Of a stretch of DNA of 64,000 nt, positions 4,007-58,135 are shown piece by piece. The stretch comes from Candidatus Aenigmatarchaeota archaeon (GTDB taxonomy: Archaea > Aenigmatarchaeota > Aenigmatarchaeia > CG10238-14). The notes below the pieces were generated by a model. That model saw only the letters and a list, made by a program, of their open reading frames with translations, did not search any database and was not told the origin of the DNA. The stretch spans positions 1-64,000 of the forward strand of contig JAWBZR010000003.1 of the NCBI GenBank assembly GCA_044343545.1, in the 5' to 3' direction. The position numbers and the translations under genes were made by a program. How positions within the stretch are numbered: position 1 is the stretch's first letter; the number at the start of each line of letters is the position of its first letter.

Positions 4007-5350
4007 ATGTCAAACGAATATTCTAAAAACATTCAAGAAATTCTAAAAGAGAATAACATAAAAATAGGCGATAAAGTAAGGGTAATGAAAAATGGGATGG
4101 AGCTAAATGGAATTCTCATGCCCAGAGTCGAAGGGGATAATAGCATACTAATAATAAAGCTAGATAATGGCTATAACATAGGAATAAGATATGAAGAAGG
4201 GATAAAAATTGAAAAAATAGAAGAAAAAGTTGTGATGACGGAAAAGAAAACTTTTGCTTACAAGGAAGATGAAAGCAAGCCAACCATTCTTATATTGCAT
4301 ACAGGGGGTACAATAGCATCTAAAGTAGATTATAGGACTGGTGCTGTTGAAGCTTCCTTCGAGCCCGAAGAGCTTGTGGAAATTTTTTCGGGTATAGATG
4401 AAATTGCGAACATAAAATCAAAACTGATAAGAAAAATGTTTTCGGAAGATATGAGATTCGAACACCATCAACTGATCGCAAGAGAAATAGCGAAAGAGTG
4501 TGAAAAGTTTGATGGAATAATCGTGACTCATGGAACGGATACTTTGCATTATACATCAGCTTCTTTATCTTTTATGTTAGAAAACCTCCCAATACCTGTA
4601 ATTCTGGTCGGCTCTCAAAGATCGAGTGATAGACCTAGTGCAGATTCTGTGATGAATGTCATTTGCGCAGCAAAATTTATAGCAAAAACAGATTTTGCCG
4701 GCGTTGCTATCTGCATGCACGGAACAATTAATGACGATTATTGCTTGATTCACCATCCATGTAAGGTGAGAAAGATGCATACAAGCAGGAGAGATGCGTT
4801 TCAACCTGTGAATGCAAAGCCCTATGCCAAAGTTTGGTTTAAGGAGGATAGAATAGAATTTTTGAGAAATGATTATATGAAAAAAGATAAGAATAGAAAG
4901 GTGATTTTGAGAGATAAAATGGAAGAAAAAGTTGGCTTGGTGAAATTTTATCCTGGTTTTGATGAAAAAATCTTGGAATTTTTTGAAAAAAATGATTACA
5001 AGGGTTTGATTTTAGAAGGTTACGGTTTGGGGCAAATACCGATAAATGAAATAGACGAATTTACCATTCACAACAAGAAAAACTTTGAAATTTTAAAGAG
5101 ATTAAGTGAAAAGGGATGTGTAATAGTAGCTTGCTCACAAACCATCTTTGGCAGGGTTAACTTGAACGTGTATTCTACTGGTAGAGATATGAAATCTATA
5201 GGAATAATAGAGGGTGAAGATATGCATCCTGAAGTTGCCTTAATGAAATTGAGATGGTTGTTGGGAAATTTTAGCGTTGAAGAAGCAAGAATTTTAATGA
5301 AACAAAACCTTAGAGGGGAGATAACAGAAAGAAGTATAGATTTAAGTTGA
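4007..5350 (+). CDS. gatD: Glutamyl-tRNA(Gln) amidotransferase subunit D
   Basis: KLDNGYNIG, HTGGTIAS, HGTDT, GSQRSSDRPS and RKMHTSRRDAF motifs. Confidence 0.97.
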   Translation: MSNEYSKNIQEILKENNIKIGDKVRVMKNGMELNGILMPRVEGDNSILIIKLDNGYNIGIRYEEGIKIEKIEEKVVMTEKKTFAYKEDESKPTILILHTGGTIASKVDYRTGAVEASFEPEELVEIFSGIDEIANIKSKLIRKMFSEDMRFEHHQLIAREIAKECEKFDGIIVTHGTDTLHYTSASLSFMLENLPIPVILVGSQRSSDRPSADSVMNVICAAKFIAKTDFAGVAICMHGTINDDYCLIHHPCKVRKMHTSRRDAFQPVNAKPYAKVWFKEDRIEFLRNDYMKKDKNRKVILRDKMEEKVGLVKFYPGFDEKILEFFEKNDYKGLILEGYGLGQIPINEIDEFTIHNKKNFEILKRLSEKGCVIVACSQTIFGRVNLNVYSTGRDMKSIGIIEGEDMHPEVALMKLRWLLGNFSVEEARILMKQNLRGEITERSIDLS

Positions 5351-5371: not shown

Positions 5372-6814
5372 ATGGCAGAAGATACTTTTACCATCTTTCT
5401 TGCGATTGTTGTTGGCATAATAGTCCTGGTTTTGGCATACAAATTTTTCATCACAATTTCTTATACTTCTTTAAGAAAAACCACTCTAAACGAATTTACA
5501 AAATTTTCTTCATCCATTGATTTTGTTTGCAGTCAAGAAGTCAAGACAACGTACCAAATAAATTTCAACCTTCCGGAGTCTGTAAGAGTTGTTTATGCTT
5601 CATATGATGAAAATATTTTACCTAAAGTGACAGAAAACATAAAAAATGGAAAAATAAGTGTAGGTGATAATGTGTGTTTGCATTTTAAAAACGAGCAAAA
5701 ACCGAGGTGTCAAAAAGTAAAGTGTAAGGTTTTCATTCCCTACATGGGTTCTTTGGAAACATGGAATGACTTGAAACTTTTTGTAAACAAAATATTAAAT
5801 AGGCCGCTAGTAAAAGAATATTCTATAAATATTTCAAAAACAAACTATGGCGTTGATTTAATATATGATAATTATGATTCTTTCAAAGTGCCGGTGTTAG
5901 TTATTGCTTACATTCCATTGAATGATGAAGGAAATGTGGATACGACAAAAACAGGTAATTGGAAAGAGAGTGATAAAGAAAAATTAAAAAACTATTTAAG
6001 TAGCGCAAGTGAAAATTTAACGGAGTTTATTAGCGAAGGTAGTAGATATAAATGGTTCATGAATTCAGATTCTACAAGAGCGGTAAATTATTACATTGCT
6101 GACGTGAAAATAAATTATAAAAGCATGCCAACAAAAGATGGCAATAGTGTTGATGTTAAAAAAATAATGGATGAAATTAATGTTTGTAATTATGTTGATG
6201 CAAGTGGTATTAAAGAATTTTGGATATGGGTGTATGATGATTTAAAACCGATAGAATTTGTAACTGTTTTAGGTAAGCAAGCTAAAGATATATGGAATAT
6301 TGATTACGATGGAGATGGAGAAAAGGATTATGGAGTTATAGGTAATTTATTGTCGCTTCCCACCTGCAAGCATTCTTATACTGTATATAATTTCATAATT
6401 GGATCGTCACCTGGAATCATGTTAAGCAACTATACTCATAGAATAGAAGCAACTTTAAGCTATTTGGATTATGGAATTTGGCTTTCATTTAATGTTAGTT
6501 GTGGTTCACCTGATTGTCCTATAAATGTTTGGCCAAATTGTGATGAAGGATGGAATAGTGAAAAAAAGGTAGAAACCAATTGCTTGAATTGGAGTCCTGC
6601 TGGCGGAGAAACAACAACTATTATAGATTGTCATAGCTGGTATGGATCTAAATGCAAAAAGGATGATGGCTTTGAATATAAGATCTGGTGGATGCAAACA
6701 TTACCAGGAAAAAATAATGGAATAAAAGTATTTGATTATTTCAAAGTAAAAAACTGGTGGAGTTTTATCGGCAATATAGATCAAGCGTCAAAACATAGAT
6801 GGTTGATAGAATGA
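5372..6814 (+). CDS. Membrane-anchored pilin-like protein with C-terminal Trp/Cys-rich extracellular domain
   Basis: N-terminal hydrophobic helix, small Cys-containing domain, then a domain of about 310 aa with EFWIW, WWMQTLPG and KNWWSFI. Confidence 0.6.
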   Translation: MAEDTFTIFLAIVVGIIVLVLAYKFFITISYTSLRKTTLNEFTKFSSSIDFVCSQEVKTTYQINFNLPESVRVVYASYDENILPKVTENIKNGKISVGDNVCLHFKNEQKPRCQKVKCKVFIPYMGSLETWNDLKLFVNKILNRPLVKEYSINISKTNYGVDLIYDNYDSFKVPVLVIAYIPLNDEGNVDTTKTGNWKESDKEKLKNYLSSASENLTEFISEGSRYKWFMNSDSTRAVNYYIADVKINYKSMPTKDGNSVDVKKIMDEINVCNYVDASGIKEFWIWVYDDLKPIEFVTVLGKQAKDIWNIDYDGDGEKDYGVIGNLLSLPTCKHSYTVYNFIIGSSPGIMLSNYTHRIEATLSYLDYGIWLSFNVSCGSPDCPINVWPNCDEGWNSEKKVETNCLNWSPAGGETTTIIDCHSWYGSKCKKDDGFEYKIWWMQTLPGKNNGIKVFDYFKVKNWWSFIGNIDQASKHRWLIE

Positions 6815-8733
6815 GTAAGGCATCTGTATCTGAAATGTTATTAACCATAGGTTTACTTGTTTGCGTCGCTATACTTCTCCTTCAGATAAAGCAGCTAGTG
6901 GCAATAAAATCAAAGTCTGCTTCTAATGAAGCTATCTACAATTTCGGAAGAGATTTGGAAATGCTTTTGGACAAGACAAAGTTTGTAAAACTTGCTGCAT
7001 TTAGTTATTCGCCTAAGATTAAGAATTACAGAATTGATGTCGAAAAAAACAAAATTATTCTTACTGACAAAGTAACCGGAAATAAGTATCAGTTTTATTT
7101 TAATGAGAAAATTCAACCAACACAATTTGAAGAAAGTGAAGATATTTGCATAGTGAAGCAAACTGTAACAATTAACAGTAAACCTAAAATAAATCTAAAT
7201 TGTCCTTTTGCTTTAAGAGGGATGAATTATTTTCCAGGTGAAGAAACTTGGGGAAGAATGTGGATCTATTGGGACGAGATTAAAGACGATGTTGCTCAAG
7301 ATCTAAAAAAAGCAAAAAGCATGGGAATAAACAGTCAAAGGATTTTTGTTGGTCAACCTACAGATGAAAATATTAGAAAACTAAAAGAATTTCTGTCTAT
7401 TTCATTCAACAACAATATACTTACTATCGTAACGCTTGATATTCCAGGATTTCCTTGCTCTTATGATGTTAGTTATATTGATGGTTGGATTGAAAATTTT
7501 AAAAATGACGAAAGAATCTTAGCATGGGATATTGGAAATGAACCAGGTTTGTCAGATTGTAACCCATCAAACGAACTTTCCTCAGAAGAAATAAACGTAA
7601 TCAATCAAGTGGCTAATTATATAAAATCTAAAGATAAAATTCATAAAATTACAGTCGGTTTATTTCAAGGTAATATAAACAAAATTTCACAAATAGTGGA
7701 CAACATAGATATAGTGCAATTTCATTTTTATGATGAACCATCCCCTGCTTCAGCAATCGATGAGGCTTTATCTCTCTCTAAAGGTAAGCCGGTAATAATA
7801 GGGGAATTTGGTTGTATGGCAACAGAATATCAATATTATCCTGGTATAGCTCCACCTGGAAGATTTTGCAACAATGAAAATGGACAAAGAAATTTTTATC
7901 AAATATATCTTAATGAAATTGTGAACAAAAAAATTTCTGGAAGTTTCTTTTGGATTTTTGAAGAATTTCAACAACCAGATAGATATGGAAATCAAAACAC
8001 GCCAACAAAAGATGATGTTTATTTTGGTTTGGTAAAATTAGATGGAAGAGTTACACCGGCAGGGGATTTAGTAAGGGAGTATTATACTCGACCAAATAAT
8101 TGCGTATTTCCTGGCGACCAAAAGATAGAAACTATCGTGAAGATTTTGCCCATTGACTGCAAAGAAATTTCTTTAGAAGAAATTATTCAAGAGCAACCGC
8201 TTCCATCGCCCACGCCTTCCCTTTCTTTGCCTGTTGACAGTGAGAGAATAACGAGCTGTTTTGGATGGAGATATAATGTAGTATATAGAAATGATTGGGA
8301 TTTTCATCAAGGTATAGATATATCTGTACCATACGGAAGTGAAGTGAAAGCAATAGCGGATGGAGAAGTCGTAAAAATATTAAACGGTGATGGATCAGTA
8401 GAGTTAGAAGGTTACGGAAACTATGTGTTGTTAAAGCATAAAATAAATGGAGTGACATATTACAGCCTATACGCACATTTAAAATGTAATGGAGTTGTCG
8501 TAAAAGTTGGTGATGTTGTTAAAAAGGGAGATGTTATAGCATATAGTGGAGGTAACGATAGTTGCAAGGGAACATCAACTGGAAATCATCTTCATTTTGA
8601 AATAAGAAAGAATGTAAATTTATTACAAAATACGTTGAATCCTTGTTTATTTTTAGAAAATTGTAATTGCGATACTACGTGTCAAGAATATAGCCAAAAA
8701 GACGATCCAACTAAATGCCCAAAGGTTTTTTAA
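6811..8733 (+). CDS. Pilin-like protein fused to a GH5-like (clan GH-A) glycoside hydrolase and an M23 metallopeptidase
   Basis: MSKA/SVSE + TM helix; RGMNY, ILAWDIGNEP, QFHFY and KPVIIGEFG (two catalytic Glu); M23 motifs HQGID, YAHL and TGNHLHFEIR; ATGA overlap with upstream stop. Confidence 0.85.
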   Translation: MSKASVSEMLLTIGLLVCVAILLLQIKQLVAIKSKSASNEAIYNFGRDLEMLLDKTKFVKLAAFSYSPKIKNYRIDVEKNKIILTDKVTGNKYQFYFNEKIQPTQFEESEDICIVKQTVTINSKPKINLNCPFALRGMNYFPGEETWGRMWIYWDEIKDDVAQDLKKAKSMGINSQRIFVGQPTDENIRKLKEFLSISFNNNILTIVTLDIPGFPCSYDVSYIDGWIENFKNDERILAWDIGNEPGLSDCNPSNELSSEEINVINQVANYIKSKDKIHKITVGLFQGNINKISQIVDNIDIVQFHFYDEPSPASAIDEALSLSKGKPVIIGEFGCMATEYQYYPGIAPPGRFCNNENGQRNFYQIYLNEIVNKKISGSFFWIFEEFQQPDRYGNQNTPTKDDVYFGLVKLDGRVTPAGDLVREYYTRPNNCVFPGDQKIETIVKILPIDCKEISLEEIIQEQPLPSPTPSLSLPVDSERITSCFGWRYNVVYRNDWDFHQGIDISVPYGSEVKAIADGEVVKILNGDGSVELEGYGNYVLLKHKINGVTYYSLYAHLKCNGVVVKVGDVVKKGDVIAYSGGNDSCKGTSTGNHLHFEIRKNVNLLQNTLNPCLFLENCNCDTTCQEYSQKDDPTKCPKVF

Positions 8734-8763
8734 CTTAGAAAAAGCAAAAGATAATAAAGAGGT

Positions 8764-10236
8764 ATGAAGGGACAAGCAAAATTTTTTATAAAAACGATCC
8801 ATCTTATTCTGATTATAATTATTGTTAACATCTTCTTGTATCAGCACATTTCCTCAGAAAAATTGTCAAAAGAAATTATGCATAAAAATGAAATGAAAAT
8901 GGCTGCTGATAACATCATAAATCAACTCACGCTTTCATCTGAATGCTTGGCATATGAAGAAAATATAATCTTTCAAGATGTTTCTCTAGAAAAAATCACT
9001 CATAGAGTTTTGGATATTAAAAAAATTGAAAATATGGAAAGGGAATTCAAGTTTTATGAGCCAAACTGCACCAAAAGGTACGGATTTGGATATTATTTGG
9101 TTATAGAAAAATTCAATTTAACAAGAAGAGAGGCCGAAAGAAGTGATGTTCCTCCTTTAAGCAACAAGGATGTTGTTATAATTATAGATGCTACGGCAAG
9201 TATGAATGAAGGTGATAAGATAAGTTATGCTAAAAGTGCCACAAAAGGTTTTATAGATTGTGCATCTTCAGATAATAGAGTGGGAATAGTTTTGCTAAAA
9301 GATTGTGGTGATGTGGAAACTTTTATTCATGAGGGAAAGGAATTGTTAGAGTTAACGGAGGAAAATAGAGCTATTTTGAAAAATTATATAGATGGGATAG
9401 GCACATATGGAAACACAGCGATAAAAGATTCTTTGAGAGAGGCTAATAGGATATTGAAAAATTCTGACAGACCTGAAAGATATAAAATGATAGTGCTATT
9501 AACGGATGGATGTGAAAGTTGTGGGGAATGCGAGTGCAAAAAAATAAGGAATGGAAATGGTCAAACCATGTGTCAGTATTACGAGGATTATTGCAACTCT
9601 TGTCCGCAAGGAAAGAATGTTTGTGATTTTGTGAAAGAAAATGTTGATAAAAACATACATCTTTTTACCGTCGGTTTATTCACAGACATCAAATGTCCTA
9701 ATGAAGAAGAAAAGGGAGGTGAGCAGTTGGAATGTGCAGCAAGGTCAAGAAATGGAAAGTATTATTTTGCTGTATCAACACAAAAGTTAGGTTTAATATT
9801 TTGCACTCTTGGTAGAGGTATCGGTGAGGCTCGCGAAGAAAAACAACTATGGGTTATTGGGAACAAATCTCATTCTCTTGATAAAAGTTTAAAAGGAAGT
9901 TTGTTTGTAAGCGTGCCTGTTTCCATAAGATATAATGAAACTTACACTCAATCTGGAAGAGTGACATTATATGTTTTTGATGGAGAACTTGAAGTTTTAT
10001 CAAACATTTTGGATGATGCGTGCGATTATGGCGAAAGTGAAGGTTTTGTTTCTTTATCTTATAAAACCTACCTAAAAAGAGAAAACAATCTTAATAATAT
10101 TTGTATGTTGAACGGAGAAAAGGAATTTTGTAAAAGTATTAGATGTAAAAAAGACGTGGAATTTCCTGTCCTTTTGCCAGGATATTATCATCTTAAAGTT
10201 TCTTCCAATGCTAACGTTGTAAAGGTGGGTGTGTGA
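8764..10236 (+). CDS. Class III signal peptide (pilin-like) protein with von Willebrand A domain
   Basis: MKG/QAKFF + hydrophobic helix; VVIIIDATASM (MIDAS-like), GNTAI and IVLLTDG motifs. Confidence 0.85.
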   Translation: MKGQAKFFIKTIHLILIIIIVNIFLYQHISSEKLSKEIMHKNEMKMAADNIINQLTLSSECLAYEENIIFQDVSLEKITHRVLDIKKIENMEREFKFYEPNCTKRYGFGYYLVIEKFNLTRREAERSDVPPLSNKDVVIIIDATASMNEGDKISYAKSATKGFIDCASSDNRVGIVLLKDCGDVETFIHEGKELLELTEENRAILKNYIDGIGTYGNTAIKDSLREANRILKNSDRPERYKMIVLLTDGCESCGECECKKIRNGNGQTMCQYYEDYCNSCPQGKNVCDFVKENVDKNIHLFTVGLFTDIKCPNEEEKGGEQLECAARSRNGKYYFAVSTQKLGLIFCTLGRGIGEAREEKQLWVIGNKSHSLDKSLKGSLFVSVPVSIRYNETYTQSGRVTLYVFDGELEVLSNILDDACDYGESEGFVSLSYKTYLKRENNLNNICMLNGEKEFCKSIRCKKDVEFPVLLPGYYHLKVSSNANVVKVGV

Positions 10237-10694
10237 AAGGTCAGACGAATGAAATCATAAACTTGGTCATTTTAGTAGTGATTGTGCTTGTTTTGTTTAT
10301 ATTATCATATTTTTTAACATCAAGACCTCAAAGATCCACTGCGCAATTGATTGAAATGCAGTCAAAATATGATGCGGCTAAAAAAGCTGTTTTAGGTTTT
10401 TATTATACAAAAGTAACTGGTGTGGAAGTTAGTTATGTTACTTTATTAGGTTATAGATTGATAAATGGAAATCCTTTTTACTTCGGGGAATATTATCCTT
10501 ATGTTGATTGTGACAAGATGGTGGAGGAATATTTCACCGAACATTTTGCCAATAATTGGGGGTTCGAGCTAAAGGATATATATTTGGGATATAAAAAACC
10601 CTCAAGCAATTATCAAACAATAGAAATTTTAATACCGGTGCCTTCACAAAATAATAGAATAGAAAGAGGATATTTGTATGTCTGGTCAAGCTAG
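10233..10694 (+). CDS. Type IV pilin-like protein (class III signal peptide)
   Basis: MKG/QTNEIINLVILVVIVLVLFILSYF; GTGA overlap with upstream stop. Confidence 0.75.
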   Translation: MKGQTNEIINLVILVVIVLVLFILSYFLTSRPQRSTAQLIEMQSKYDAAKKAVLGFYYTKVTGVEVSYVTLLGYRLINGNPFYFGEYYPYVDCDKMVEEYFTEHFANNWGFELKDIYLGYKKPSSNYQTIEILIPVPSQNNRIERGYLYVWSS

Positions 10695-11904
10695 CATCAT
10701 TATCATAGTAGGCTTGGTGGCAGCTTCTTTGATATTGTGGGTTGTCAACACATACACTCAATATTCAACCAAAACACGAGTTATTACATCCACTGAAGTT
10801 GATAAGATTTCGAGTTATATTGACATTATAAAAAGTTTTAGTAGAAATGCCTTGCAAATTTCCGCGCACAAATCTTTTATGTTTGATGCAAGTAGAGGAA
10901 GAACTTTCTATTGTAATGGCCCTTCTCCACCAAGTATAAGAGTTATATTGCATGATGTTGAAATATTAACTAATAGAACATTCAATGAATATTTAAGCAA
11001 AGTTAGTTTCGATGATCCATTACTTGAATTAAACATAACACCATCTACCTGTATAAGTTTTGACATAAATGAGCAACGTTTAAATTCGCATAATTATGAT
11101 GAAAAATTTAACGCAAGTGAATTTGGAAGTGAAATTAGTATAAAGTATGGCGATAATTTCTTGATAGAAAGTAATGAAATAAAAGATGAAAGTATTGTGA
11201 GGAATAGGTTTTGGCTGATTTACAATGGTTTTAAGAGATGGGCTGAAGAGACACATGCTTTCGATAATATTTGTAATTGCCTTCAAGACCAAAGTATATG
11301 CGGATGTGGAAACATTCCATGTAATGGTGATTGTAAAAGTTGTATGCCCCTATATTATTGCACAAAAGAAAGTATTATAAAAAGTATCGAAGAACTTGAT
11401 GCTATATTTTCAAACGAGTACATAGAATGTAAAGGTGAAATAGAAAATTGTGTTTTAAACGTTGAAGATAGTAGTTGTAGTGATACTGAAAGTTGCGGGG
11501 AATGGGTTAACGATGAATGTTTCTTCTGTGAATATGATGATGAAGAAAGTTTATGCTCAGATAGTTTATCATATGGTCTGGCAAGAGCGCAAGCAACTAC
11601 AACAACTGTGACTCAATGGAGTTGTTTAGTAAGTAAAAAAACTATAAAATACAAGGCAAAAATCAGTTTCGTTTGCATAGATAAAAAATATGCTCTTCCC
11701 GTTGAAGCATCGCCAGAGGAGCAACAATTGAAGTATAAGATTACAGCATATTTTGCTAATGAAGCTTATGGTGTTTGTCCAAGTTATGTAATTACAACAA
11801 ATCCGCCTCCAAATAATTGTGGATGTGCGGCTTCTGTTCCTGGACCTCCTGGACCTGGAGATGTTCCCCCTGGTCAACCCTTACCTCCTCCACCAAAAGG
11901 TTAA
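10678..11904 (+). CDS. Pilin-like Cys-rich protein with Pro-rich C-terminal tail
   Basis: MSG/QASIIIIVGLVAASLILW; more than 20 Cys; ends PGPPGPGDVPPGQPLPPPPKG. Confidence 0.7.
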   Translation: MSGQASIIIIVGLVAASLILWVVNTYTQYSTKTRVITSTEVDKISSYIDIIKSFSRNALQISAHKSFMFDASRGRTFYCNGPSPPSIRVILHDVEILTNRTFNEYLSKVSFDDPLLELNITPSTCISFDINEQRLNSHNYDEKFNASEFGSEISIKYGDNFLIESNEIKDESIVRNRFWLIYNGFKRWAEETHAFDNICNCLQDQSICGCGNIPCNGDCKSCMPLYYCTKESIIKSIEELDAIFSNEYIECKGEIENCVLNVEDSSCSDTESCGEWVNDECFFCEYDDEESLCSDSLSYGLARAQATTTTVTQWSCLVSKKTIKYKAKISFVCIDKKYALPVEASPEEQQLKYKITAYFANEAYGVCPSYVITTNPPPNNCGCAASVPGPPGPGDVPPGQPLPPPPKG

Positions 11905-11933
11905 TCTTTTATTAGGTTATATAAATATTCAAT

Positions 11934-14033
11934 ATGCTAGTAGGCAAAATTATAGGCAAAACCTCTCCAGAAAGCTATAGTTTTGAAGTTACAGGTATAA
12001 TTAGAAAAATGGATTTTGTAGCTACAAGAGACCCAGAAAAAAATTGGGTTTTGGGTAGAATAGATGATATAATACAGCAAGATACGCAAACTATTGCAAC
12101 AGTTTCAGTAATAGGATATGCAGACAAGGATGGAGTAAAGATGCCAAGAATGCCATTCAAGCCTAACACGTATGTTTATAAGGCAGACGACGGTTTGATA
12201 AAAAAAGTGTTAGGCTTAAAAAATTCTGGATTATATGTAGGTCTGCTAGATGGCTCGGAAAAGTTAAAAGTATATCTTGACCCTAAGTTGCTTATGACAA
12301 AACATTTAGCTATATTGGCAAAATCTGGTTTTGGAAAATCTTACCTGGCAGGTATTTTGCTTGAAGAATTCATGGAAAATGAGATTCCTGCAGTGGTTAT
12401 AGATCCTCACGGTGAATATTTAACTTTAAGAAACCCGAACAAAAAACAAGAAGAAATAAAATATATGCCTATGTTTGATGTTGAGCCGAAAGGTTATGCA
12501 AAAAATGTCGAAATATATTGTTTGGATAAAAATTTGACAGAAGGCTCGAGAAGATTGAAACTAAGAGGAAAATTGACGCATCAAGAAATTTTGGACATGC
12601 TTCCATTCAAACTATCTCCTACTCAGCTTAGCATCATTTATACAGCAGTGACGGAATCGGAAAAGCAAGAATATACTATTGATGAGCTTAAAAGGGAAGT
12701 TATGAAAAACAAATCTCCGTCAAAGTGGAGCGTGATTCCTGTATTAGATCTTATAAAATCTACTGGACTTTTTGACATTATTGGTTATGTTACGCCTCAA
12801 GACTTGGTTAAAAAAGGAAAAGTGAGCATAATCAACCTAAAGGGAATAGAGCCGGATATTCAGCAGCTGGTTGTCTACAAGCTTGCTAAGGATTTATTTC
12901 ATGCAAGAAAGATGAATAGAATACCCCCTTTTATGTTTATAATAGAGGAAGCACATAATTTTGCTCCAGAAAGAAGTTTTGGCGAAGCGGTCTCGTCTCG
13001 TATAATAAGAACAATAGCATCTGAAGGTAGAAAGTTTGGTATGGGTCTTTGTGTTATCACCCAAAGACCTGCAAGAATAGATAAAAATGTTTTATCTCAA
13101 TGTACAACGCAAATATTTTTGAGGGTAACAAATCCTAATGATTTAAAATCCATAAGTGATTCTGTGGAAGGAATGACAAAAGGTTTAGAATCGCAAATTA
13201 AAATATTGCCTGTAGGAACTGCATGCATAGTTGGTTTGATAGAGCAACCCTTACTTGTTAATGTAAGAATAAAGAGAAGCGAACATGGTGGTGCTCCTGC
13301 ATCTTTGACAGAAAAATTCAAGGAACAAGAAGAGTCTGGCGATACATTATACTTCTATCCAAAATTTTTCGAAGAGGATGTGAAAAAGATTGTTTCAAAA
13401 GACATTGAAAGGATAAAACTTGTGTATTATCCACTTTATTATCTGAAATGCAAGTTTAGAACAGACGAAGGAGATAAAGTGGACAACATCTTTGTTGACG
13501 GTTTTAGTGGAGAACTGGTTTATTTGAACAAAGGAATTTTGGAAAGAACTGAAGGGTTTAAAAAGCTACTTGATTTGGACACCAAACAGAAAGCTGTTTC
13601 AATATTTTTGACAAGTTATGGAAGCACGGATTTTAATACCATCAGTAAAAGATTGAAAATAAGAGATGAAGAGTTAATGGAAATATTAGGGACGTTAAAG
13701 AAAAAAGGCATAGTATCCATGGACGGCTTGTTGTTTAAAAGCAACATAAGGGTGAATTTTGAAGAAATTATTGAAAAACAAATATCCGAAGCGCCTCTAT
13801 CTTACAAGTATGGTGGCGAGGTTTTGGAACCAAAAATCAAGAAAGATATCATTCCGAAAGTTTTGGATATATTCAATCCTGATGCTGTGGATAAGAAAAC
13901 AGCTTTTTATCCTTTTTGGGTCCTCTCTTTAAGTGACGGGACTATCGAAGTCATAGATGCATTGACTGGAGAAAAAGAAGAATACTTGAAAAGCTTTGGA
14001 ATATTAGAAAACCTAAAATCTATGTTTGATTAA
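11934..14033 (+). CDS. HerA/FtsK-superfamily ATPase (DUF87-type) with HAS-barrel-like N-terminus and long C-terminal extension
   Basis: KHLAILAKSGFGKSY (Walker A), DPHGEY, IIEEAH (Walker B), EGRKFG and TQRP motifs. Confidence 0.9.
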   Translation: MLVGKIIGKTSPESYSFEVTGIIRKMDFVATRDPEKNWVLGRIDDIIQQDTQTIATVSVIGYADKDGVKMPRMPFKPNTYVYKADDGLIKKVLGLKNSGLYVGLLDGSEKLKVYLDPKLLMTKHLAILAKSGFGKSYLAGILLEEFMENEIPAVVIDPHGEYLTLRNPNKKQEEIKYMPMFDVEPKGYAKNVEIYCLDKNLTEGSRRLKLRGKLTHQEILDMLPFKLSPTQLSIIYTAVTESEKQEYTIDELKREVMKNKSPSKWSVIPVLDLIKSTGLFDIIGYVTPQDLVKKGKVSIINLKGIEPDIQQLVVYKLAKDLFHARKMNRIPPFMFIIEEAHNFAPERSFGEAVSSRIIRTIASEGRKFGMGLCVITQRPARIDKNVLSQCTTQIFLRVTNPNDLKSISDSVEGMTKGLESQIKILPVGTACIVGLIEQPLLVNVRIKRSEHGGAPASLTEKFKEQEESGDTLYFYPKFFEEDVKKIVSKDIERIKLVYYPLYYLKCKFRTDEGDKVDNIFVDGFSGELVYLNKGILERTEGFKKLLDLDTKQKAVSIFLTSYGSTDFNTISKRLKIRDEELMEILGTLKKKGIVSMDGLLFKSNIRVNFEEIIEKQISEAPLSYKYGGEVLEPKIKKDIIPKVLDIFNPDAVDKKTAFYPFWVLSLSDGTIEVIDALTGEKEEYLKSFGILENLKSMFD

Positions 14034-14043: not shown

Positions 14044-14913
14044 ATGAATCATAAAGATATAATCGATTTTTTGATTATAAAAAGCCAGGAGTTTCTCGAA
14101 TACTTCAAAGATATCACCATCATATTGATCTTTCGCTTTATGAAAACTTGACGTGGGAAAATATAATTTATTCTATAGTAAATTGTAGGATGAATGAATG
14201 TATTATATTAACTGAGAGTTGGGGGAGAAAATTATTTGAAGTTGAAGGTTATGACTTAGACCCGAATACACCTTGGCAAACTCATTGGTTATATGCGCCT
14301 GATGTGATGATTAACACGACAAATATTGAGGGTAAGAGAAGGTGTAAATTTTAGATTTGTTGATGGTATTAGAAATGCTAACTGGGACTATAATATTCCT
14401 CATAGAGGTTTTGGGGTAATAGATCCTAGAACACATGTAGAGATACTTTATCCGTTTTTGTATTTAGTAGAAGGATGGAAATTATATGATTTGGCTACGA
14501 AAATGATAAAGATCACTTCAATAGCTGCAGACGTTACCGGCAAAGTGCCCTCTACTTCAGAAATAAAGTATCATACAGTGACTTTAAGAAACATCTCCTC
14601 TGATGTGAGAATCCAAACCTACTCCGATTGCACATGTAACTGGGGTAGATACGGTTTAAGGAGAAGGAGAGAAAGGTATAAAGGTGGTGAAAGATTAATG
14701 TGTAGACACGGTGTTGCGCTTTATCATTATTTGCAAGACAATAAAAAAGTCGATGCTTATTTACCTGTGCCGACAGGCATTCTAAATGTTTGGTTGACGT
14801 TAAAGCAAAGAGTAGTTATAGGCGTGAGTAAAGTGACGAAAACACAGATGAATGCTTTGTTAGGTATGATAATAGCTTACATGGGTGTAGAAAAAGCTTT
14901 TTCTTTGGAATAA
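14044..14913 (+). pseudogene. SWIM zinc-finger protein, probably one disrupted gene (track ORFs 14148-14354 and 14326-14913)
   Basis: DCTCNW...LMCRHGVALY SWIM motif; the two ORFs join with a +1 shift near 14322; the 5' end is also disrupted near 14052-14072. Confidence 0.55.
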
Positions 14914-16165: not shown

Positions 16166-18370
16166 TTAGCAACCGTGCGGTCCCATGCATCTTTCAGGTT
16201 TCTTGTTTCTCTTCTTGCCAAGCAAAGCAATTAACAGCAATAAAAGTAGCGGTAACAGCAATAAAAGCCATAATAGATTGAATTTGTTTTCAGCTTTTAC
16301 TCTCATTGTTGAAGTTACCGAATATTTCGGAGACCCTTGAGCAGTAATTGTGAATTTGTATAAACCACTTGCATCGCATGGAACATTGACATCCACATAC
16401 ACCTTTCTGAATTCACCCGCGTCAAGCTCGATTGTGCTTGGGTAATTACTCAACCATTTAGCAGGTTCGCCTTCAAAACTTATTGTAAACATATCTTTTG
16501 CTTCGCCCACATTCTTGACGATAAAGGAGATGTTTGTTTGTTGGCATTGTCTTACAACATATTCACTTTCAGCTCTCACTTGAGGATATCCCATCTTTAT
16601 TGAAAATTCTCTTTCCAACTCATCTGAAGCGTAGGGATTCCAGACGTTTACCTTTACCTTCATTATATCCGTATCTTCCGGAACTCTTATTACGAAGCTT
16701 ACATCTCTCTCTTCGTTAGGTTTGAGCATTATTATGCCACCTGACATTGTTTTATTTAATGCATACAATCTTGTCTCTATATTAGGCTCTATATGCATTC
16801 CACAATTTCTTACTCTTACTTTAAGAGTGGCTGTTTCACCTTCCTTTAACGGTTTTTCTGTCCACAAATCTTTAATTATCAAGCAATGCTCAGGTGTTGT
16901 CTTGAAATAGCTACTTTCATCTATTATAAATCTTCTCATGGAAGTATCGCTTATTCCATCCAACCAAGCTGTTACTTCTATCGTATGCATTCCTTCTCCA
17001 TATTTGTCTGCACTAAAGTAGAATTTGTATTCTTTTGTCTCTATGTGATAAAATCTCAAAGACGATTCTGTTAATACTTTGCCGTCTATCCTTACTTCAA
17101 CATATACATTTTGTGGCAAAGAGGGTGCTTCTTTTAATGTGATAGGTACCTTACCTTCAACGAGATCAGAGGAGCGTGGATTTTCTGGATTTAGCCAGAT
17201 AAATCCTACATCTATATCTTTTGGTTCAAAACATTTTATCACTCTTATAGCAGAATATCTCGTTTCACTATCTTTTGCACCTTCCACTACCACTTTAATG
17301 TCATGAGTTCCATAAGACAAGTCATAAGCATTATATTCATATTCTATTGAAAATGTTTTTCTTTCTCCAACATCTAATACATGAGTATCCTTGCCTATGT
17401 ATATGTATCTCCCATCTTCTTTTATGTAGAATCTTGCCGTAACTTCTGTATCATCCCTACCAGCGACGAGTCTAACTGGGACAGAAATTTCTATGGTCGC
17501 GTCTCTTTCCCTGCATATGGTATATGGTGAAACTTCGATACTTCCCACACTTACATCTTCTGTGTCATAGCAAGATGGGGGGCAAATTGTTGTGGTTGTG
17601 CATGGTGGTTGAGGTACTTGTTTATTTCCAAACTTTACCTCTACTAGCAAGGGTGAATTTATCGTTACATACTGTGGATTTGAAGTAGTTGTTTGCCATC
17701 CATCAGGAACGTTTTCTCTAATGATGTAATAGCCGTAAGGCAAATTTGTCAACAAAGCATAACCGTCTGCATTCGTGTAAACCGTCGTAGTTATGGGGCC
17801 TATCACAGTAAAAGCAAAACCTTGTAAGGGTTGTTCTCCATAATCCCATTGGCCGTTGCCGTTAGAATCGTAAAACTTGAAAATCTTTAAAGAGCCATAT
17901 GGTAGTGTAGTTGTGGGTGGTGGTGTGGGAGTAGGTGGATTGCAATCAGCTGGGCTTTGTCTATCAGAAACCCAGACTATCCAATCTTTAGCTTCTCCTA
18001 CACTATTCACTACATCTATTTGTATAGTTGTGCATGGCTCAACATAGTTGGCAAGCGAAGCTGAAGACAAACCGAATTCGCCATAAATAAAGTTATAGCC
18101 TGGCAAATTTATGCACTCGTAATGAGGAGTGCCAGGTCTCATAGCAATACCTTTGCATTTATACACTGAAACTGTATAGCCTGAAGGTGCATAACAACTT
18201 CCTGAATATACATCACAAGTATTCACGCAATTAGGGTCATTTTCTGTACCTCCACAGACGTTTCTTATCCTTCCACCAAGTATAGGATAGTTTGGATCAT
18301 ATGCCAAGACTAAATTTAATAGTAAGAGCAAAATGCTCAATAGTATTATTACTCTCTTCATAATGTTCAC
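16166..18370 (-). CDS. Large cell-surface protein (SdrD/Cna-B-like and CARDB/Ig-like domains, C-terminal TM)
   Basis: Signal peptide; Cys-rich N-domain; FYDSNGNGQWDYGEQPLQG...YTNADGY (SdrD-B-like); several VKNxG Ig-like repeats; Leu-rich TM plus basic tail. Confidence 0.75.
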   Translation of the reverse strand: MNIMKRVIILLSILLLLLNLVLAYDPNYPILGGRIRNVCGGTENDPNCVNTCDVYSGSCYAPSGYTVSVYKCKGIAMRPGTPHYECINLPGYNFIYGEFGLSSASLANYVEPCTTIQIDVVNSVGEAKDWIVWVSDRQSPADCNPPTPTPPPTTTLPYGSLKIFKFYDSNGNGQWDYGEQPLQGFAFTVIGPITTTVYTNADGYALLTNLPYGYYIIRENVPDGWQTTTSNPQYVTINSPLLVEVKFGNKQVPQPPCTTTTICPPSCYDTEDVSVGSIEVSPYTICRERDATIEISVPVRLVAGRDDTEVTARFYIKEDGRYIYIGKDTHVLDVGERKTFSIEYEYNAYDLSYGTHDIKVVVEGAKDSETRYSAIRVIKCFEPKDIDVGFIWLNPENPRSSDLVEGKVPITLKEAPSLPQNVYVEVRIDGKVLTESSLRFYHIETKEYKFYFSADKYGEGMHTIEVTAWLDGISDTSMRRFIIDESSYFKTTPEHCLIIKDLWTEKPLKEGETATLKVRVRNCGMHIEPNIETRLYALNKTMSGGIIMLKPNEERDVSFVIRVPEDTDIMKVKVNVWNPYASDELEREFSIKMGYPQVRAESEYVVRQCQQTNISFIVKNVGEAKDMFTISFEGEPAKWLSNYPSTIELDAGEFRKVYVDVNVPCDASGLYKFTITAQGSPKYSVTSTMRVKAENKFNLLWLLLLLPLLLLLLIALLGKKRNKKPERCMGPHGC

Positions 18371-24852: not shown

Positions 24853-27234
24853 CTATATTGCTGTTACTCGTGTGATTTGACTATATTCATCTTCATCTTT
24901 ATTTCTATGAATCCTATAAATTTCTCCCGTAGCAGCAGCCTCTAAATGAGGATTATGGGTTATTATAAATACTTGACTAACAAATTCTTTTATTCTATCT
25001 CTTAAAGCATCGGCCATTTGTAACACGGATTTTTCATCCAAACTTTCGGTGGGTTCATCAAGTATCAACCAATTAAGATGAGGTACTAACACTATAGAGA
25101 ATGCTATCCTTAGTGCTAAGCAAGCCATTCTGCTTTCTCCGCCAGACAAATTTTCTACATCTACCCATTCTCTTTTCTTATTTAACAATTGTAACATATA
25201 ATTTCCATCTTCGACGGCCATCCTTATATCTACATAATCTCCATAAGGATATAATTCTTGCCATATTTCAGACATCTTGTTGTTGACCGATTCGATAAAT
25301 TCAATCCTTAACTCAGATTGTGTTTTCTGTAAAGCTTCCTCGAAAGCATTTAAATTTTTAATAGCTTTTTCCAGCTTTAGCATATAATTTTTTTGAGAAA
25401 TAACTTTTTCAAATTCAAATTTTAATTTCTCCAAGAGATTTTTTCTATCATTCAAGCTTTTAACTTTCTCTTCATAAAGAGTTTTTTTCTTTATTAGCAT
25501 ATCTCTTGAGTTTTCATACTCTCTTTTCAAATCGTCATAATTTAATTTATTTAGCAAGCTCTCATACTCTATTTTTTTGTTTTCTTCAAAATTTATTTCG
25601 CTCATTATTTTTTCGATATCCGCTTTCAAGTCTTCAAGTTCTTTCGCTTTTTCAATTAAACTTTGAACTTGCAACATTTTAGCTTTTGCCTGATCTATTT
25701 GCTTCTCCAGTCTTTGCAAATTATCTTTGCTCGTCGTTAAATTAGAATCTAATTCCAAAAGTATGTTTTCAAAATTTTTTATCTTGCTTTCATTTTCTTC
25801 ATATTCTTTTAACAACTCTTCTTTTTTATCTAAATATACCTTCGCTTCTTCCATTTTTTTCGCATCAGACTCTATCTTTTCTATCTCCAACTCTAAATTT
25901 TTCTTTTCATTTTTCTTAACTTCCAATTCACTTGATATTTTTTGAATTTCTTCTTTTTTATGAATCAATAACTGATGTTTGTTTTCTTTAGATATTAGCG
26001 AACCACAAACAGGACATTTGTTTTCTGTTTTTTCAAGTTGTGAAAATATGTTATCAACATCTTGTTTTTTATATTCTAAAAAAGAAATTTCTGAGTTTAA
26101 ATCTTCTAACTTTTTTCTTTTTTCTTTAATAATATCTCTCACATTTTCTCCATAAATGGATAAAAGACTGTTAAAAACATTTATATGTTTCTCTATATTT
26201 TTCAATTCTCTCTCAATATCAGCATTTCTATTTTTAAGTATTTTGCAATTGTTTTCGTTTTTGATCTTTTCTGAGAAAATTTTTTCATACATACTTTTTT
26301 CTTCAACAAATTCTTTTTCGTATATTTTCAACTCTTCAAAATATGTTTTATTTTTTTCGTTCATTTTTGCTATATCTTCGTTTTCTAACATTTTCATTAA
26401 TTTCTCTTTCCTTTCAAGTTTTTCACTCAAAATTTTCTTTAAGCCTTTCAATCTCTCCATCAATCTCTCCAACTCAAATTTTTTTTCTTCAACTTCCTTT
26501 AATTTTACCTGTTTTTCTTCAACAATCAATTTCAATTCTTCTATATTTTTTAAAATGTTGTTAATTTCAATTTCATCAGCACTTATTTTTGCAGACAAAT
26601 CATCAATTTCTCTTTTTTTACCCTCTATATCTTCTTCAGACAGGATTCTTTGCAAACTTGACTTTTCAGCCTCCATTTTTGTTCTCAAATTCACCGTAGC
26701 TGATCTTGCTCTCTCAAAATCATCTATTCGAAGCAAATTATCTATTTTTTTAGCTCTCTCACTTGGTGAAAGTCTTATGAAATAATCTATATTATTTTGT
26801 TCAGAATATATTGCCCTGCTAAACAATTCATAATCTACTTTTAATATTTTTTCTATAGCTTCAGTGACCCTCCTAGTATTTGGTCCTTCTATCAACTTAT
26901 ATTCTACATTCTCTCTCTTTCTCAGCTCTGAATATGTCGTGCCTTTATCCCTTTCAATAACTCTATAAACTGAATAGTCTTTACCTTCATAAGAAAATTC
27001 TAGTTCAACCCTAGCTTCATTTAGCTTTATTGGTTTATTAGTAATCATATCCTCCAAATTTTGCTTTCTCGATTGAACTTTCGGTAAAGTTCCGAATAAA
27101 GCAAAAGAAATGGCATCCATAATAGAACTTTTACCTGCACCGTTTATGCCAACAATCACATTAGTTCCGTCACTAAACTCAAGAACATTATCTTTATGCA
27201 TTTTCCAATTAACCAACCTTATTCTCTTTATCAT
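24853..27234 (-). CDS. rad50: DNA double-strand break repair ATPase Rad50
   Basis: GINGAGKSS, Q-loop SEQN, zinc hook CPVCG, LSGGE, ILDEPT and ITH motifs; long coiled coil. Confidence 0.95.
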   Translation of the reverse strand: MIKRIRLVNWKMHKDNVLEFSDGTNVIVGINGAGKSSIMDAISFALFGTLPKVQSRKQNLEDMITNKPIKLNEARVELEFSYEGKDYSVYRVIERDKGTTYSELRKRENVEYKLIEGPNTRRVTEAIEKILKVDYELFSRAIYSEQNNIDYFIRLSPSERAKKIDNLLRIDDFERARSATVNLRTKMEAEKSSLQRILSEEDIEGKKREIDDLSAKISADEIEINNILKNIEELKLIVEEKQVKLKEVEEKKFELERLMERLKGLKKILSEKLERKEKLMKMLENEDIAKMNEKNKTYFEELKIYEKEFVEEKSMYEKIFSEKIKNENNCKILKNRNADIERELKNIEKHINVFNSLLSIYGENVRDIIKEKRKKLEDLNSEISFLEYKKQDVDNIFSQLEKTENKCPVCGSLISKENKHQLLIHKKEEIQKISSELEVKKNEKKNLELEIEKIESDAKKMEEAKVYLDKKEELLKEYEENESKIKNFENILLELDSNLTTSKDNLQRLEKQIDQAKAKMLQVQSLIEKAKELEDLKADIEKIMSEINFEENKKIEYESLLNKLNYDDLKREYENSRDMLIKKKTLYEEKVKSLNDRKNLLEKLKFEFEKVISQKNYMLKLEKAIKNLNAFEEALQKTQSELRIEFIESVNNKMSEIWQELYPYGDYVDIRMAVEDGNYMLQLLNKKREWVDVENLSGGESRMACLALRIAFSIVLVPHLNWLILDEPTESLDEKSVLQMADALRDRIKEFVSQVFIITHNPHLEAAATGEIYRIHRNKDEDEYSQITRVTAI

Positions 27235-27854
27235 ATCTTTACACCCAACTTTTTAAGGTCTAACAATAACTGTTTTGGATTCTTATAAACTATGCCATTT
27301 ATTCCCAACTTGATTGCTGCCTCTACGTTTTTCTTCTTGTCATCTATGAATATGCATTCTTTCGGTTTTGCATTGATTCTTTCAAGCATCATGATGTAAA
27401 TTTCTTTATTAGGTTTAGATATTCCAACATCGCAAGAATTTATAACTACATCAAAATATTTGTAAAAATCATATTTTTTGTTAATCTCTTCGAGCCATGC
27501 ATTATTGTTTGTCAAAAGTCCAAGCTTATAATTTTTTTTAAGATTTTTTATGATGTTTATCACGGGCTCTATAGGCTTGTTTAAGGATATTATTTCTTTT
27601 TTTAATTCAGTTTCATCAAAATCGTAACCCGTTACCTTTTTTATCTTCTTCCAAAACACACTTTCACTTATTTTACCCAAATTAAATTCTTCTACAAGCA
27701 TCCTTATTTTTTTTCTCTTTTTAAAATTAAGCAAAAGTGAAAGGATCTTTATCTTTGAAATTTTTGAATTAAACAAAGCTTCTAACAAAAGTTGATTTGT
27801 TGTGCCGGGATAAAAACAAACACCGCCAAAATCAAATATTATCGCTTTTATCAT
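27231..27854 (-). CDS. HAD-family phosphatase (YihX-like)
   Basis: IIFDFGGV, LTNN, KP and FIDDK..NV motifs. Confidence 0.88.
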   Translation of the reverse strand: MIKAIIFDFGGVCFYPGTTNQLLLEALFNSKISKIKILSLLLNFKKRKKIRMLVEEFNLGKISESVFWKKIKKVTGYDFDETELKKEIISLNKPIEPVINIIKNLKKNYKLGLLTNNNAWLEEINKKYDFYKYFDVVINSCDVGISKPNKEIYIMMLERINAKPKECIFIDDKKKNVEAAIKLGINGIVYKNPKQLLLDLKKLGVKI

Positions 27855-29049
27855 CCACCAATCCCTCCAAAATAAGTTTCTTAGCTTTCTCTAAATCTCC
27901 GCCAGACATGTAACTGTATAATTGCAAAAAATCAATTTTATCATCAAAACCTACTTTTCTTATATTTTCTTCCAAAATTTTTATTCCCAATTCTTCAATT
28001 GAAATTTTAGATTCTCTCGCTTCTCTAAGAATTTGAACCTTTTTTTCTAGAAACTCTCCAGTCAACTCTTTAGAATATTTTATTATAAATTCATTAGAAT
28101 ATTCGTCTATTATATTTTTCATATCCTTATCAACGCTCAAAAGTCTGTTGTATTTAAGTTTTATTTTGAACAGAGGTTTCTTCTGATAGTTTCCTCTATG
28201 CTTTTCTATAACTTCCTTTATTTGCTCTCCTATACTTCTCTCCTCTTTTATTTCAATTTCTTCATATATGAACTTTCTTTGACCCTTTATAGGTTCAAAT
28301 TCCACTTTTTCTTCTGGAAGCAAGAGTTTATAAATGCCCTTTTCAGCCTGCTCCTCTTTTTTAGCTTGCGTGACGATTGTACTACCAGCAAGGATTATTT
28401 TCTTATCACCGATTTTTTCAAACCTCGAAGAATGAATATGACCGTTAATTATGAGATCAAAACCTTCCGGCAAAGAGTCGATTGTGAGAGTGGACGGTTC
28501 TGCAGGCGAATATATAAATGGCACAATGTTTTGATGAAGCAAGAGTATATTATAGCATCCTTCTTTAGGTTGAGGTGACCATTCTTCTAAAATTTGTGAA
28601 GCATATCTTTCTGGCACACCAGACATGCCTTGAATTGCCACTTTTATGCCATTTTTTTCGAAAATCAGACCATTCTTGTGTAAGTGATATAGCAATCCTG
28701 CTGACTCTAGAAGTTGTACAGCATTATATTGTTCCCTTCCGACCCTTTCATGCGTTCCGTGTAGAGCTATGACAGGTATACCTTCGTGTTGTTTGACAAC
28801 ATTCTTTTTAATAGATTCGAACAATCTTGTCTCGGTTTTAACGGTTGATGGTATTGAAAATATTTGAACGGCCCTTGTTAATATATCTGGCTTTGGAAAT
28901 CTGTTATCAAATATATCACCACACACTATTATTAGGTCGCTATCTAGGCTTTGTTCCATTGCTTGTCTTGCCTGCTCAAAACTATCGTTTTCAAGTGGTG
29001 TATTTAGGGCAAAACCCAGATGTAAATCAGAAAATATGGAAATTTTCAT
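27832..29049 (-). CDS. mre11: Mre11 nuclease
   Basis: SDLHLG, GDIFD, HGTHE, LLHQ and GHIH metallophosphoesterase motifs; upstream of rad50. Confidence 0.92.
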   Translation of the reverse strand: MKISIFSDLHLGFALNTPLENDSFEQARQAMEQSLDSDLIIVCGDIFDNRFPKPDILTRAVQIFSIPSTVKTETRLFESIKKNVVKQHEGIPVIALHGTHERVGREQYNAVQLLESAGLLYHLHKNGLIFEKNGIKVAIQGMSGVPERYASQILEEWSPQPKEGCYNILLLHQNIVPFIYSPAEPSTLTIDSLPEGFDLIINGHIHSSRFEKIGDKKIILAGSTIVTQAKKEEQAEKGIYKLLLPEEKVEFEPIKGQRKFIYEEIEIKEERSIGEQIKEVIEKHRGNYQKKPLFKIKLKYNRLLSVDKDMKNIIDEYSNEFIIKYSKELTGEFLEKKVQILREARESKISIEELGIKILEENIRKVGFDDKIDFLQLYSYMSGGDLEKAKKLILEGLVDDKSDNI

Positions 29050-32565: not shown

Positions 32566-33050
32566 AGAACGTTTTATGGTTTTTTTTAAAGTTGAATCTT
32601 TTCTTAATACCGTTTTATCTTGTTATATATTTTGATGTAAAATATGAACCCCTACAAATTTTGTTCGCAAGTGCAATAAAAAAGTTCTTGAGTGTTTTTG
32701 GTTTTGAAATATTACAAGACAGTTTTATTCTCTATCTTGGCCCTGAGAGGTATGCTGTAGACATATCTTTCGATTGTATAGGATGGAAATCTGCTTACTC
32801 ACTCTTCGCCTTGGTAATTTCTTCGCCGGGTTTGTGGAAAGAGAAATTTGCCTTTTTATCTAAATGGTTGCCGTTAACATTTTTAATAAATTTTCTTAGA
32901 GTCATATTTGCATTGATCGTTGGTTTTGTCTTTGGGTTTAGAATAATGGCTCCCTTACATGATTACGTACTTCAACCCTTTATGATTGTGTTGGTTTTGT
33001 CTTTGTGGATGCTCTATATGAATAGGAGAAGATTTATAGAGAAGAAATGA
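32532..33050 (+). CDS. Archaeosortase/exosortase-family membrane protein
   Basis: Multi-TM; ISFDCIGWKS (catalytic Cys), INFLRV (Arg) and LHD (His). Confidence 0.75.
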   Translation: MDKRLQKEKNLKNVLWFFLKLNLFLIPFYLVIYFDVKYEPLQILFASAIKKFLSVFGFEILQDSFILYLGPERYAVDISFDCIGWKSAYSLFALVISSPGLWKEKFAFLSKWLPLTFLINFLRVIFALIVGFVFGFRIMAPLHDYVLQPFMIVLVLSLWMLYMNRRRFIEKK

Positions 33051-58112: not shown

Positions 58113-58135
58113 AAATTAAATGAAACAACAAAATT

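Follow-up and report, generated by a model that had tools for sequence, protein, structure and literature searches.

In the modular pilins of Streptococcus sanguinis, PilB carries a von Willebrand factor A (vWA) adhesin module and PilC a lectin, and a survey based on a bacterial motif, IPR012902, counts 264 architectures, predicted peptidase modules (S74, M26) among them, for which exposure at the pilus tip was proposed (Raynaud et al. 2021, PMC8179133); the main text of that study, which also mentions PilY1, does not use the word "archaea". TadG is a vWA-bearing member of minor-pilin type (PMC4858521). Archaeal Epd-type (system 1) pili and the bindosome combine class III signals with functional proteins on a type IV filament base, and scattered filament genes have been described in DPANN archaea (PMC13705601, whose main text lacks the words hydrolase, protease, HerA, vWA and M23 and any word beginning with enzym or Aenigm). 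Woese- and Pacearchaeota encode giant (up to 3,000 amino acids, aa) stand-alone extracellular murein lytic-transglycosylase proteins, and DPANN murein-degrading domains have been read as serving attachment to, or attack on, bacteria (PMC8204110; PMC9723730; neither "pili" nor "pilus" occurs in the two main texts). Here we describe a 64,000-nucleotide (nt) stretch of DNA (the window; contig C16:1-64000) from a genome of the Aenigmatarchaeota (DPANN; 651 kb, 22 contigs, 90% complete), in which a cassette of five genes, O1-O5 (5372-11904), encodes what are probably five modular type-IV-pilin-like proteins, a minor-pilin or tip-type set belonging to an Aenigmatarchaeota type IV filament. We found no published description of this cassette or of archaeal wall hydrolases fused to pilins, although the supplementary tables of PMC13705601 and PMC4858521 could list the genes.

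Like the bacterial modular pilins, O1-O5 join a small pilin module to a grafted functional module, with vWA occurring in both, but here there are five different scaffolds in a fixed-order cassette, cargo is swapped at set positions, and the enzymes are murein-type hydrolases (M23, SLT, M14) and C1/C25 proteases; the likeness is one of architecture, and we do not claim homology to bacterial pilins. As in the low-abundance sets GspH-I-J-K of type II secretion, FimU-PilVWX plus PilY1, and TadE/F/G, the genes of four to five pilin-like proteins stand side by side, a domain is inserted into one large subunit, a member bears vWA, and one pair is predicted to bind along the alpha-1 helices and heads. 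In contrast to those tip complexes, with which there is no sequence similarity, the cassette proteins place Glu at +4 instead of +5 and include a member without a leader, and enzymes are fused straight to a subunit. Class III signals and functional proteins on a type IV filament base recall the Epd-type pili and the bindosome, but the two-gene platform of system 1 is replaced by a single ~700-aa double-T2SSF protein without an adjacent ATPase. Unlike the Woese- and Pacearchaeota proteins, the enzymes form part of a pilin-like subunit encoded within an Aenigmatarchaeota filament operon. We take the cassette to be an archaeal version of modular minor pilins that bear wall hydrolases.

Conservation of the cassette is the first pillar of this interpretation. 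In a six-frame search of 301 genomes of the phylum, O5 was found in 29, with one match per genome, and the O1 N-module (aa 1-165) in 55, mostly as a stand-alone protein of ~170 aa. Twenty-six cassette loci were fetched around family matches and their open reading frames (ORFs) labeled by phmmer. The canonical order is a platform gene (~700 aa), three to five small pilins, in some cases large secreted proteins, O1, O2, a ~200-aa secreted protein, O3, O4, O5, and Alba; the five families are labeled in order in 11 of the 26 loci, L130, L131 and L155 bring the total to 14, and the ordered loci stem from at least four GTDB families. L153 has an unlabeled ORF at the O4 position, and the other loci are broken at contig ends, hold O3-O5 only (the genus of the window), or are rearranged. 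A platform ortholog is present on 14 of the 26 loci, and the small proteins encoded after it begin with MKGIALS or MKKGLTALE. Its profile aligns with the canonical T2SSF of the genome (hhalign, 96.8% probability, E 2.3e-10, 251 columns), and one ortholog comes close to the PF00482 cut-off (24.6 versus 25.2 bits). At E <= 1e-60, the platform family is found in 255 of the 301 genomes; because a paralog is near-universal, its presence across the phylum is uninformative about co-occurrence. These data support the view that O1-O5 are a conserved modular cassette, with a constant scaffold and position-specific variable cargo, that is tied to type-IV-filament genes in relatives.

The N termini are the second. 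A class III signal, namely a short polar or basic leader up to G/A/S followed by ~20 hydrophobic residues, is clear in O2, O4 and O5. The N termini quoted in the preliminary description (MSKA/SVSE in O2, MKG/QAK in O3, MKG/QTNE in O4, MSG/QAS in O5) read as it gave them, and [KR][GAS]/Q motifs are kept family-wide, across 16-24 orthologs per family, which argues that they are not due to chance. The family patterns are K[GA]xx[ST]E and then ILTxGxLIA in O2, whose N-module is kept in 16 loci; K[GAS]QxSF(L/F)xK[GST] in O3; MK[GA]Q[TS]xE in O4, with M1, K2, Q4 and E7 invariant in 18 sequences; and K[SAG]Q[SA]SL in O5. EppA substrates likewise have Gln at +1. O1 has no class III leader; distant members of its family, in which four Cys of the N-module are invariant, start MKG or MRG, and O1 of the window and of near lineages starts M[AP][DE], about where those distant proteins would be cut. 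The genome encodes Peptidase_A24 at two places, C18:15280-15621 and, 9.8 kb beyond the window, C16:73804-74127, and it has five T2SSE matches above the Pfam cut-off, all of them outside contig C16; in keeping with the earlier remark that PilB and TadC genes are missing from the window, no T2SSE or T2SSF match lies anywhere on that contig. A crude class-III rule flags 54 of the 709 ORFs of the genome and catches only O2 and O4 of the cassette; being this loose and missing O3 and O5, it does not discriminate, and we use it below only to compare rates.

The third line of evidence is the cargo, examined by Pfam scans of all family members longer than 200 aa and of four loci scanned whole; several loci are close relatives, so the cargo counts that follow are not independent events. 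O2 matches Peptidase_M23 (83.9 bits, cut-off 28.7) and, weakly, Cellulase/GH5 (PF00150; 28.4 bits, cut-off 23.5), and NCBIfam models match it as well. The M23 zinc motifs are in place (HQGID at 503, HLH at 597), and so are the GH5-like motifs NEP (247) and GEFG (335), which we take to contain the catalytic acid/base and nucleophile Glu residues; matches in a PDB sequence search are LytM, lysostaphin and ShyA. Among 17 O2 members, 9 carry a Pfam hydrolase. The combination of GH5-like and M23 domains in the window gives way to SLT+M23 in L130, SLT+M14 in L129 and L131, SLT+M12-like in L150, C25 in L145 and L146, and C1 in L132 and L153, and L133 has one weak reprolysin match. O3 matches VWA_2 (44.9 bits, cut-off 27) and also VWA, with a motif of the metal-ion-dependent adhesion site type (DATAS, with Thr for the first Ser, then GNT and LLTDG); in tblastn against relatives, aa 1-115 and 352-490 match and flank a variable insert, and vWA is found in 11 of 25 family members. 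A beta-propeller-like domain is present in 7 of the 12 O4 members longer than 200 aa, and cargo-less O4 (~155 aa) occurs in the window and in several relatives; the ESM Atlas neighbors of O4 are DPANN hypothetical proteins, with the pilin-like DUF7287 and DUF7262 as weak leads only. O1, O4 and O5 match no Pfam family. O5 contains 22 Cys and a Pro-rich tail, none of 25 members has a Pfam domain, and its family is small (194 among 1.84 billion representative proteins; profile search, E <= 0.001). The cargo assignments of the preliminary description therefore hold: GH5-like, M23, vWA and HerA-like domains are matched by Pfam, and the Trp/Cys richness of O1 and Cys/Pro richness of O5 are borne out by the sequence.

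The C-domain of O1 (window 5867-6811; 15 Trp and 8 Cys) is present on other proteins as well. It matches no Pfam family and nothing in a PDB sequence search at E <= 1; its structural neighbors in the Atlas include hypothetical proteins of Chloroflexota, in a cluster with 1,899 members (TM 0.83), and a phage cluster (TM 0.70). Two O1 family members carry LysM. A word-index homolog search with the O1 N-module gave 30 candidates, none at E <= 0.001. A second O1-like gene, together with a secreted protein of ~180 aa, opens contig C12 of the same genome (C12:17-1680), and it adjoins the same glycoside-hydrolase-like neighbor as the stand-alone O1 of the genus-mate G010.

The cargo also bears on what the set is for. 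Assembled by the same route, but instead of building a filament that reaches another cell, O1-O5 could form a short bindosome-like or pseudopilus structure on the surface of their own cell, where the enzymes would digest free wall debris and proteins to feed a nutrient-poor DPANN cell without breaching a living partner. General proteases (C1, C25, M14) stand beside the murein enzymes in the cargo, secreted non-pilin proteins are encoded inside the operon in relatives, and archaeal proteins with class III signals that act as binders rather than filament builders are known from the bindosome (PMC13705601). We nonetheless consider this scenario rather unlikely, since vWA, LysM and the beta-propeller look suited to binding a surface and not soluble substrates, and no transporter genes are found among the labeled ORFs of the 26 loci, in which not all unlabeled ORFs were scanned.

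Structure prediction adds a fourth, conditional argument. AlphaFold (AF2) models the O1 N-module (predicted local distance difference test, pLDDT, 83.2; predicted template modeling score, pTM, 0.69) as a helix over residues 2-53 followed by six strands, and O5 (pLDDT 74.7, pTM 0.66) as a helix over residues 4-72 followed by an alpha/beta head, with four segments, the Pro-rich tail among them, below 50 pLDDT. Both models thus predict a long N-terminal helix with a sheet or an alpha/beta head. The co-assembly of the five mature proteins that had been suggested earlier was modeled for one pair, O4-O5, and for that pair the outcome was positive: the complex score, which is the model's own confidence and not a measurement, was 0.77, as against 0.00 for the best of three controls. 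For comparison, 116 of 157 solved complexes attained this mark, as did 2 of 215 mismatched pairs, counts that are only rough because our own alignments were used. The prediction runs agree in at least 92% of contacts with partner pLDDT of at least 82, and the predicted contacts follow both long helices and both heads, so that binding of O4 to O5 is supported in silico.

Several observations weigh against a pilin identity. The pilin models of Pfam and NCBIfam, PF07790 (Pilin_N) and PF04021 for example, match none of O1-O5 at E <= 0.1, whereas an ORF elsewhere in the window (38995-39666) does match Pilin_N. With Foldseek, neither model matched a PDB entry at E <= 0.001 (best E 0.25 for the O1 N-module, 0.038 for O5). 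In VIA-wide comparisons, the best Z for the O1 N-module was 3.8, with type IV pilins at Z 3.2-3.3 and tied with coiled coils, and for O5 GspK (3ci0_K) ranked third with Z 5.5 (rmsd 2.6, 95 residues), tied with unrelated rows and inside the stated noise range of the tool; the PDB fold searches are too weak either to claim or to exclude any fold family, and we treat them as inconclusive. The window O5 starts MSG, without a basic residue. In O3, two Lys interrupt the hydrophobic stretch and there are two possible cleavage sites, the second of which reads KT instead of KG in the window. Seven of the 17 O2 members have no Pfam match or recognizable enzyme. No homolog of the 746-aa PilB-type ATPase of the genome lies on any of the 26 cassette loci, the platform gene of the window genome is on another contig (C1:541-2634) with one pilin (C1:44-553) before the contig breaks off, and the 90%-complete assembly yielded no match for three of the small pilins, pilC, pilD and pilE. 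The public runs that contain the region are hot-spring metagenomes, with no RNA run listed among them.

Some of these points would fit a simpler explanation, in which the five proteins are plain signal-anchored ecto-enzymes and adhesins with uncleaved helices, no filament is made, and the pilin neighborhood reflects a shared surface function. The missing Pfam pilin match, the fold searches without a clear pilin match, the leaderless O1 and the scattering of the parts in the genus of the window would all follow. We find this explanation quite improbable because the very N terminus shows K[GAS]Q with little or no variation, a Glu is conserved four residues on in O2 and O4, and the gene order is conserved beside a T2SSF-like platform; in addition, the modeled alpha-1 helices span 50-70 residues, far beyond membrane-anchor length, and the predicted O4-O5 interface follows helices and heads.

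The interval 5372-14033 is filled by six plus-strand ORFs (Table 1), and their coordinates confirm the six co-oriented, overlapping or closely spaced genes reported at the outset. O2 is 644 aa long from a start at 6799 and 640 aa from a second Met at 6811; provided that the latter is used, O1 and O2 share an ATGA. O3 and O4 share a GTGA, O4 and O5 overlap by 17 nt, and O2 and O3 are separated by 30 nt. Judged from the sequence, the start/stop overlaps (ATGA, GTGA, 17 nt) would be compatible with coupled translation. The ~200-aa secreted protein that sits between O2 and O3 in most relatives is absent from the window cassette, and its L132 copy (L132:12034-12897) carries DUF333.

Table 1. Coordinates of the O1-O5 cassette and its bordering features in the window
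Feature	Position	Strand	Description
gatD	4007-5350	+	NCBIfam GatD, 513.5 bits; left border of the derived position of the cassette
O1	5372-6814	+	480 aa; leaderless pilin-like module (aa 1-165) and Trp/Cys-rich C-domain (aa 166-480)
O2	6811-8733	+	Class-III-type N terminus, ~135-aa pilin-like module, GH5-like and M23 cargo
O3	8764-10236	+	490 aa; MKG/Q N terminus; vWA insertion splits the pilin-like module
O4	10233-10694	+	153 aa; pilin-like subunit without cargo, MKG/QTNE
O5	10678-11904	+	408 aa; Cys-rich, pilin-like, MSG/QAS, Pro-rich tail; signature member of the cassette
O5-herA spacer	11905-11933	+	29 nt; holds the ATCTTTTATT element (sequence comparison)
HerA-like ATPase	11934-14033	+	699 aa, C-terminal extension; neighbor, judged to be outside the cassette

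The sixth gene had been read in the preliminary description as part of the same device: five pilin-like proteins and a HerA-like ATPase forming one Ced-like or translocase-coupled machine, with HerA powering transfer. The common orientation and the 29-nt spacer invite this reading, as does the persistence of the O4-(O5)-HerA adjacency in close relatives, where the accessions of the O4 and HerA homologs are two apart (MCS7135224/226, MEM5799735/737, MEM5777898/900); recent common descent, however, is expected to keep such an adjacency. Linkage is lost farther out. We fetched 80 loci around relatives of the HerA-like gene and searched them by tblastn with the ten local proteins of the window: O2, O3, O4 and O5 are found in none of them, and no HerA match is present in any of the 26 cassette loci, where the gene 3' of O5 is usually Alba. 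The closest HerA locus, L015 (HerA 84% identical), has gatD directly upstream of herA, and the two genes abut with no cassette between them in all three same-genus genomes (G006, G010, G078), the gatD-herA spacer being ~75-80 nt in L015 and L142-L144. Among the 28 other genomes with O5, 19 have a HerA-like match (E <= 1e-40), on a different contig in 18 and, in G084, as a 36%-identical paralog 270 kb from O5. The synteny survey proposed earlier has thus recovered the conserved scaffold with variable cargo but not the linkage to HerA, whose separation from the cassette in relatives speaks against the coupling.

Neither the neighbors nor the sequence of the HerA-like protein restores the connection. 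Class-III-like ORFs make up 42 of the 771 ORFs flanking HerA genes in the 80 loci as compared with 54 of 709 in the window genome, so HerA genes are not enriched for pilin-like neighbors, and three or more such ORFs within 6 kb occur in only 2 of the 80 loci. In four closely related loci from DPANN outside the Aenigmatarchaeota (L035, L036, L037, L039), O1-, O2- and O3-like pilins and a zinc-ribbon protein lie near a HerA-like gene; this cluster, 1-2 kb away and divergent, is the sole recurrence outside the clade of the window and would favor coupling, as would the two pilin-like genes ~3 kb from the HerA-like gene of L032, but we judge the case of the four related loci to be a chance neighborhood. 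The protein itself scores 102.3 bits for DUF87, with weak HAS-barrel and HerA_C matches, and only 78.8 bits against NCBIfam CedD (cut-off 600) and 163.9 bits against the best NCBIfam HerA model (cut-off 970); its top matches are 55-88% identical, the named ones being Aenigmatarchaeota. By its sequence it is a member of the HerA/DUF87 superfamily and should be called no more than that. An element, ATCTTTATT, ~30 nt upstream of herA in cassette-less relatives resembles ATCTTTTATT in the O5-herA spacer (11905-11933) and would be compatible with herA having its own promoter. Known type IV filaments, moreover, run on PilB-family ATPases and not on HerA (PMC4858521). A single pilin-HerA machine is therefore very improbable, and we judge the HerA-like ATPase to be an unrelated conserved neighbor; of the earlier interpretation, the modular set of pilin-like proteins with adhesin and hydrolase cargo is supported, and the coupling to a translocase is not.

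The window cassette instead occupies a derived position, the gatD-herA spacer. Contigs from four other hot-spring runs (two studies) span the gatD-O1 and O5-herA junctions with 0 differences, which argues that the arrangement is not an assembly artefact; none of these contigs joins gatD straight to herA, but they are short and hence uninformative about such a variant. In the same-genus genomes, O3-O4-O5 are on contigs other than gatD-herA, and the filament operon of the genus is scattered. The window O5 is ~30% identical to those of its genus-mates, and the O5 tree places it, at the end of a very long branch (2.79), apart from the starred clade that the three genus-mates form. A horizontal origin of the cassette was considered and is not claimed: under the approximately unbiased test, one clade for the whole genus is not rejected (p 0.376), and we accordingly propose fast divergence and relocation, not transfer.

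We posit that each of the five pilin-like proteins enters the membrane via its N-terminal hydrophobic helix and that O2-O5 are cut after [KR/S][GA] by one of the two A24 prepilin peptidases of the genome; O1 would not have to be cut, as its sequence already begins at the mature end. Packing of all five along the long alpha-1 helices and through the heads would then give a priming or capping complex for a filament. The base of this filament would be the conserved ~700-aa double-T2SSF platform, and its PilB-type ATPase would act in trans. In such a complex, O2 would display the wall hydrolases, a GH5-like glycosidase and an M23 endopeptidase in the window and, in relatives, a lytic transglycosylase with an M23, M14 or M12-like enzyme, or C1/C25 proteases; O3 would display a vWA adhesin, complemented in relatives by LysM on O1 and a beta-propeller on O4. 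The set would likely serve to attach to another cell and cut its wall locally, the most plausible target being a wall that contains murein.

A bolder version, in which the cassette forms the tip of an extendable filament and works as a contact-dependent wall drill on murein-walled bacteria, making these archaea cross-domain episymbionts or predators, we regard as unlikely; host attack as such is an interpretation based on the cargo. In it, vWA, LysM and the propeller would attach, a pilin-borne lytic transglycosylase, M23, M14 or GH5 enzyme would open the sacculus, and the host range would be determined and altered by cargo swaps in O2-O4 combined with very rapid sequence drift, much as in phage tail-fiber cassettes.

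Other features of the window and genome are recorded here in their own right. A Rad50-like gene (SMC_N/AAA_23; 24853-27234, minus strand) and an Mre11-like gene (Metallophos; 27832-29049, minus strand) are 13 kb away from the HerA-like gene and on the opposite strand to it, while contig C17 holds NurA and C20 a second HerA paralog (496 aa); with these genes apart, the usual archaeal herA-mre11-rad50-nurA cluster is dispersed in this genome. Downstream of herA, a SWIM-zinc-finger-like gene (14067-14913, plus strand) is split over two frames; an intact 292-aa homolog (L144:12183-13061) matches frame 2 (14067-14327) and frame 3 (14326-14883), indicating a frameshift, whether genuine or introduced by sequencing. 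A CARDB/SdrD-like surface protein of 734 aa (16166-18370, minus strand) ends in a hydrophobic segment and a basic tail with a weak PACE-CTERM match, and an exosortase/archaeosortase-like gene (32532-33050, plus strand) lies 14 kb from it. Over 58000-64000, G+C falls from ~0.32 to 0.20-0.25, and an AbiEii-like gene (58702-59358) and the gene of a LamG-domain protein of 788 aa (60831-63197) are located there.

We know of no host for any member of the Aenigmatarchaeota, and it is not settled by what means DPANN archaea hold on to their partners and open them. If O1-O5 are indeed a minor-pilin set, "modular pilins", surveyed so far in bacteria, would extend to archaea and to enzymatic cargo, and the DPANN filament genes that have been called scattered would include at least one well-ordered operon of ~15 genes. 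A HerA motor coupled to pili, a tempting but in our judgment false lead, is removed from the picture. The fixed-order carriers and the O2 hydrolases offer experimental handles, and the specificity of these enzymes could indicate the type of wall that surrounds the host.

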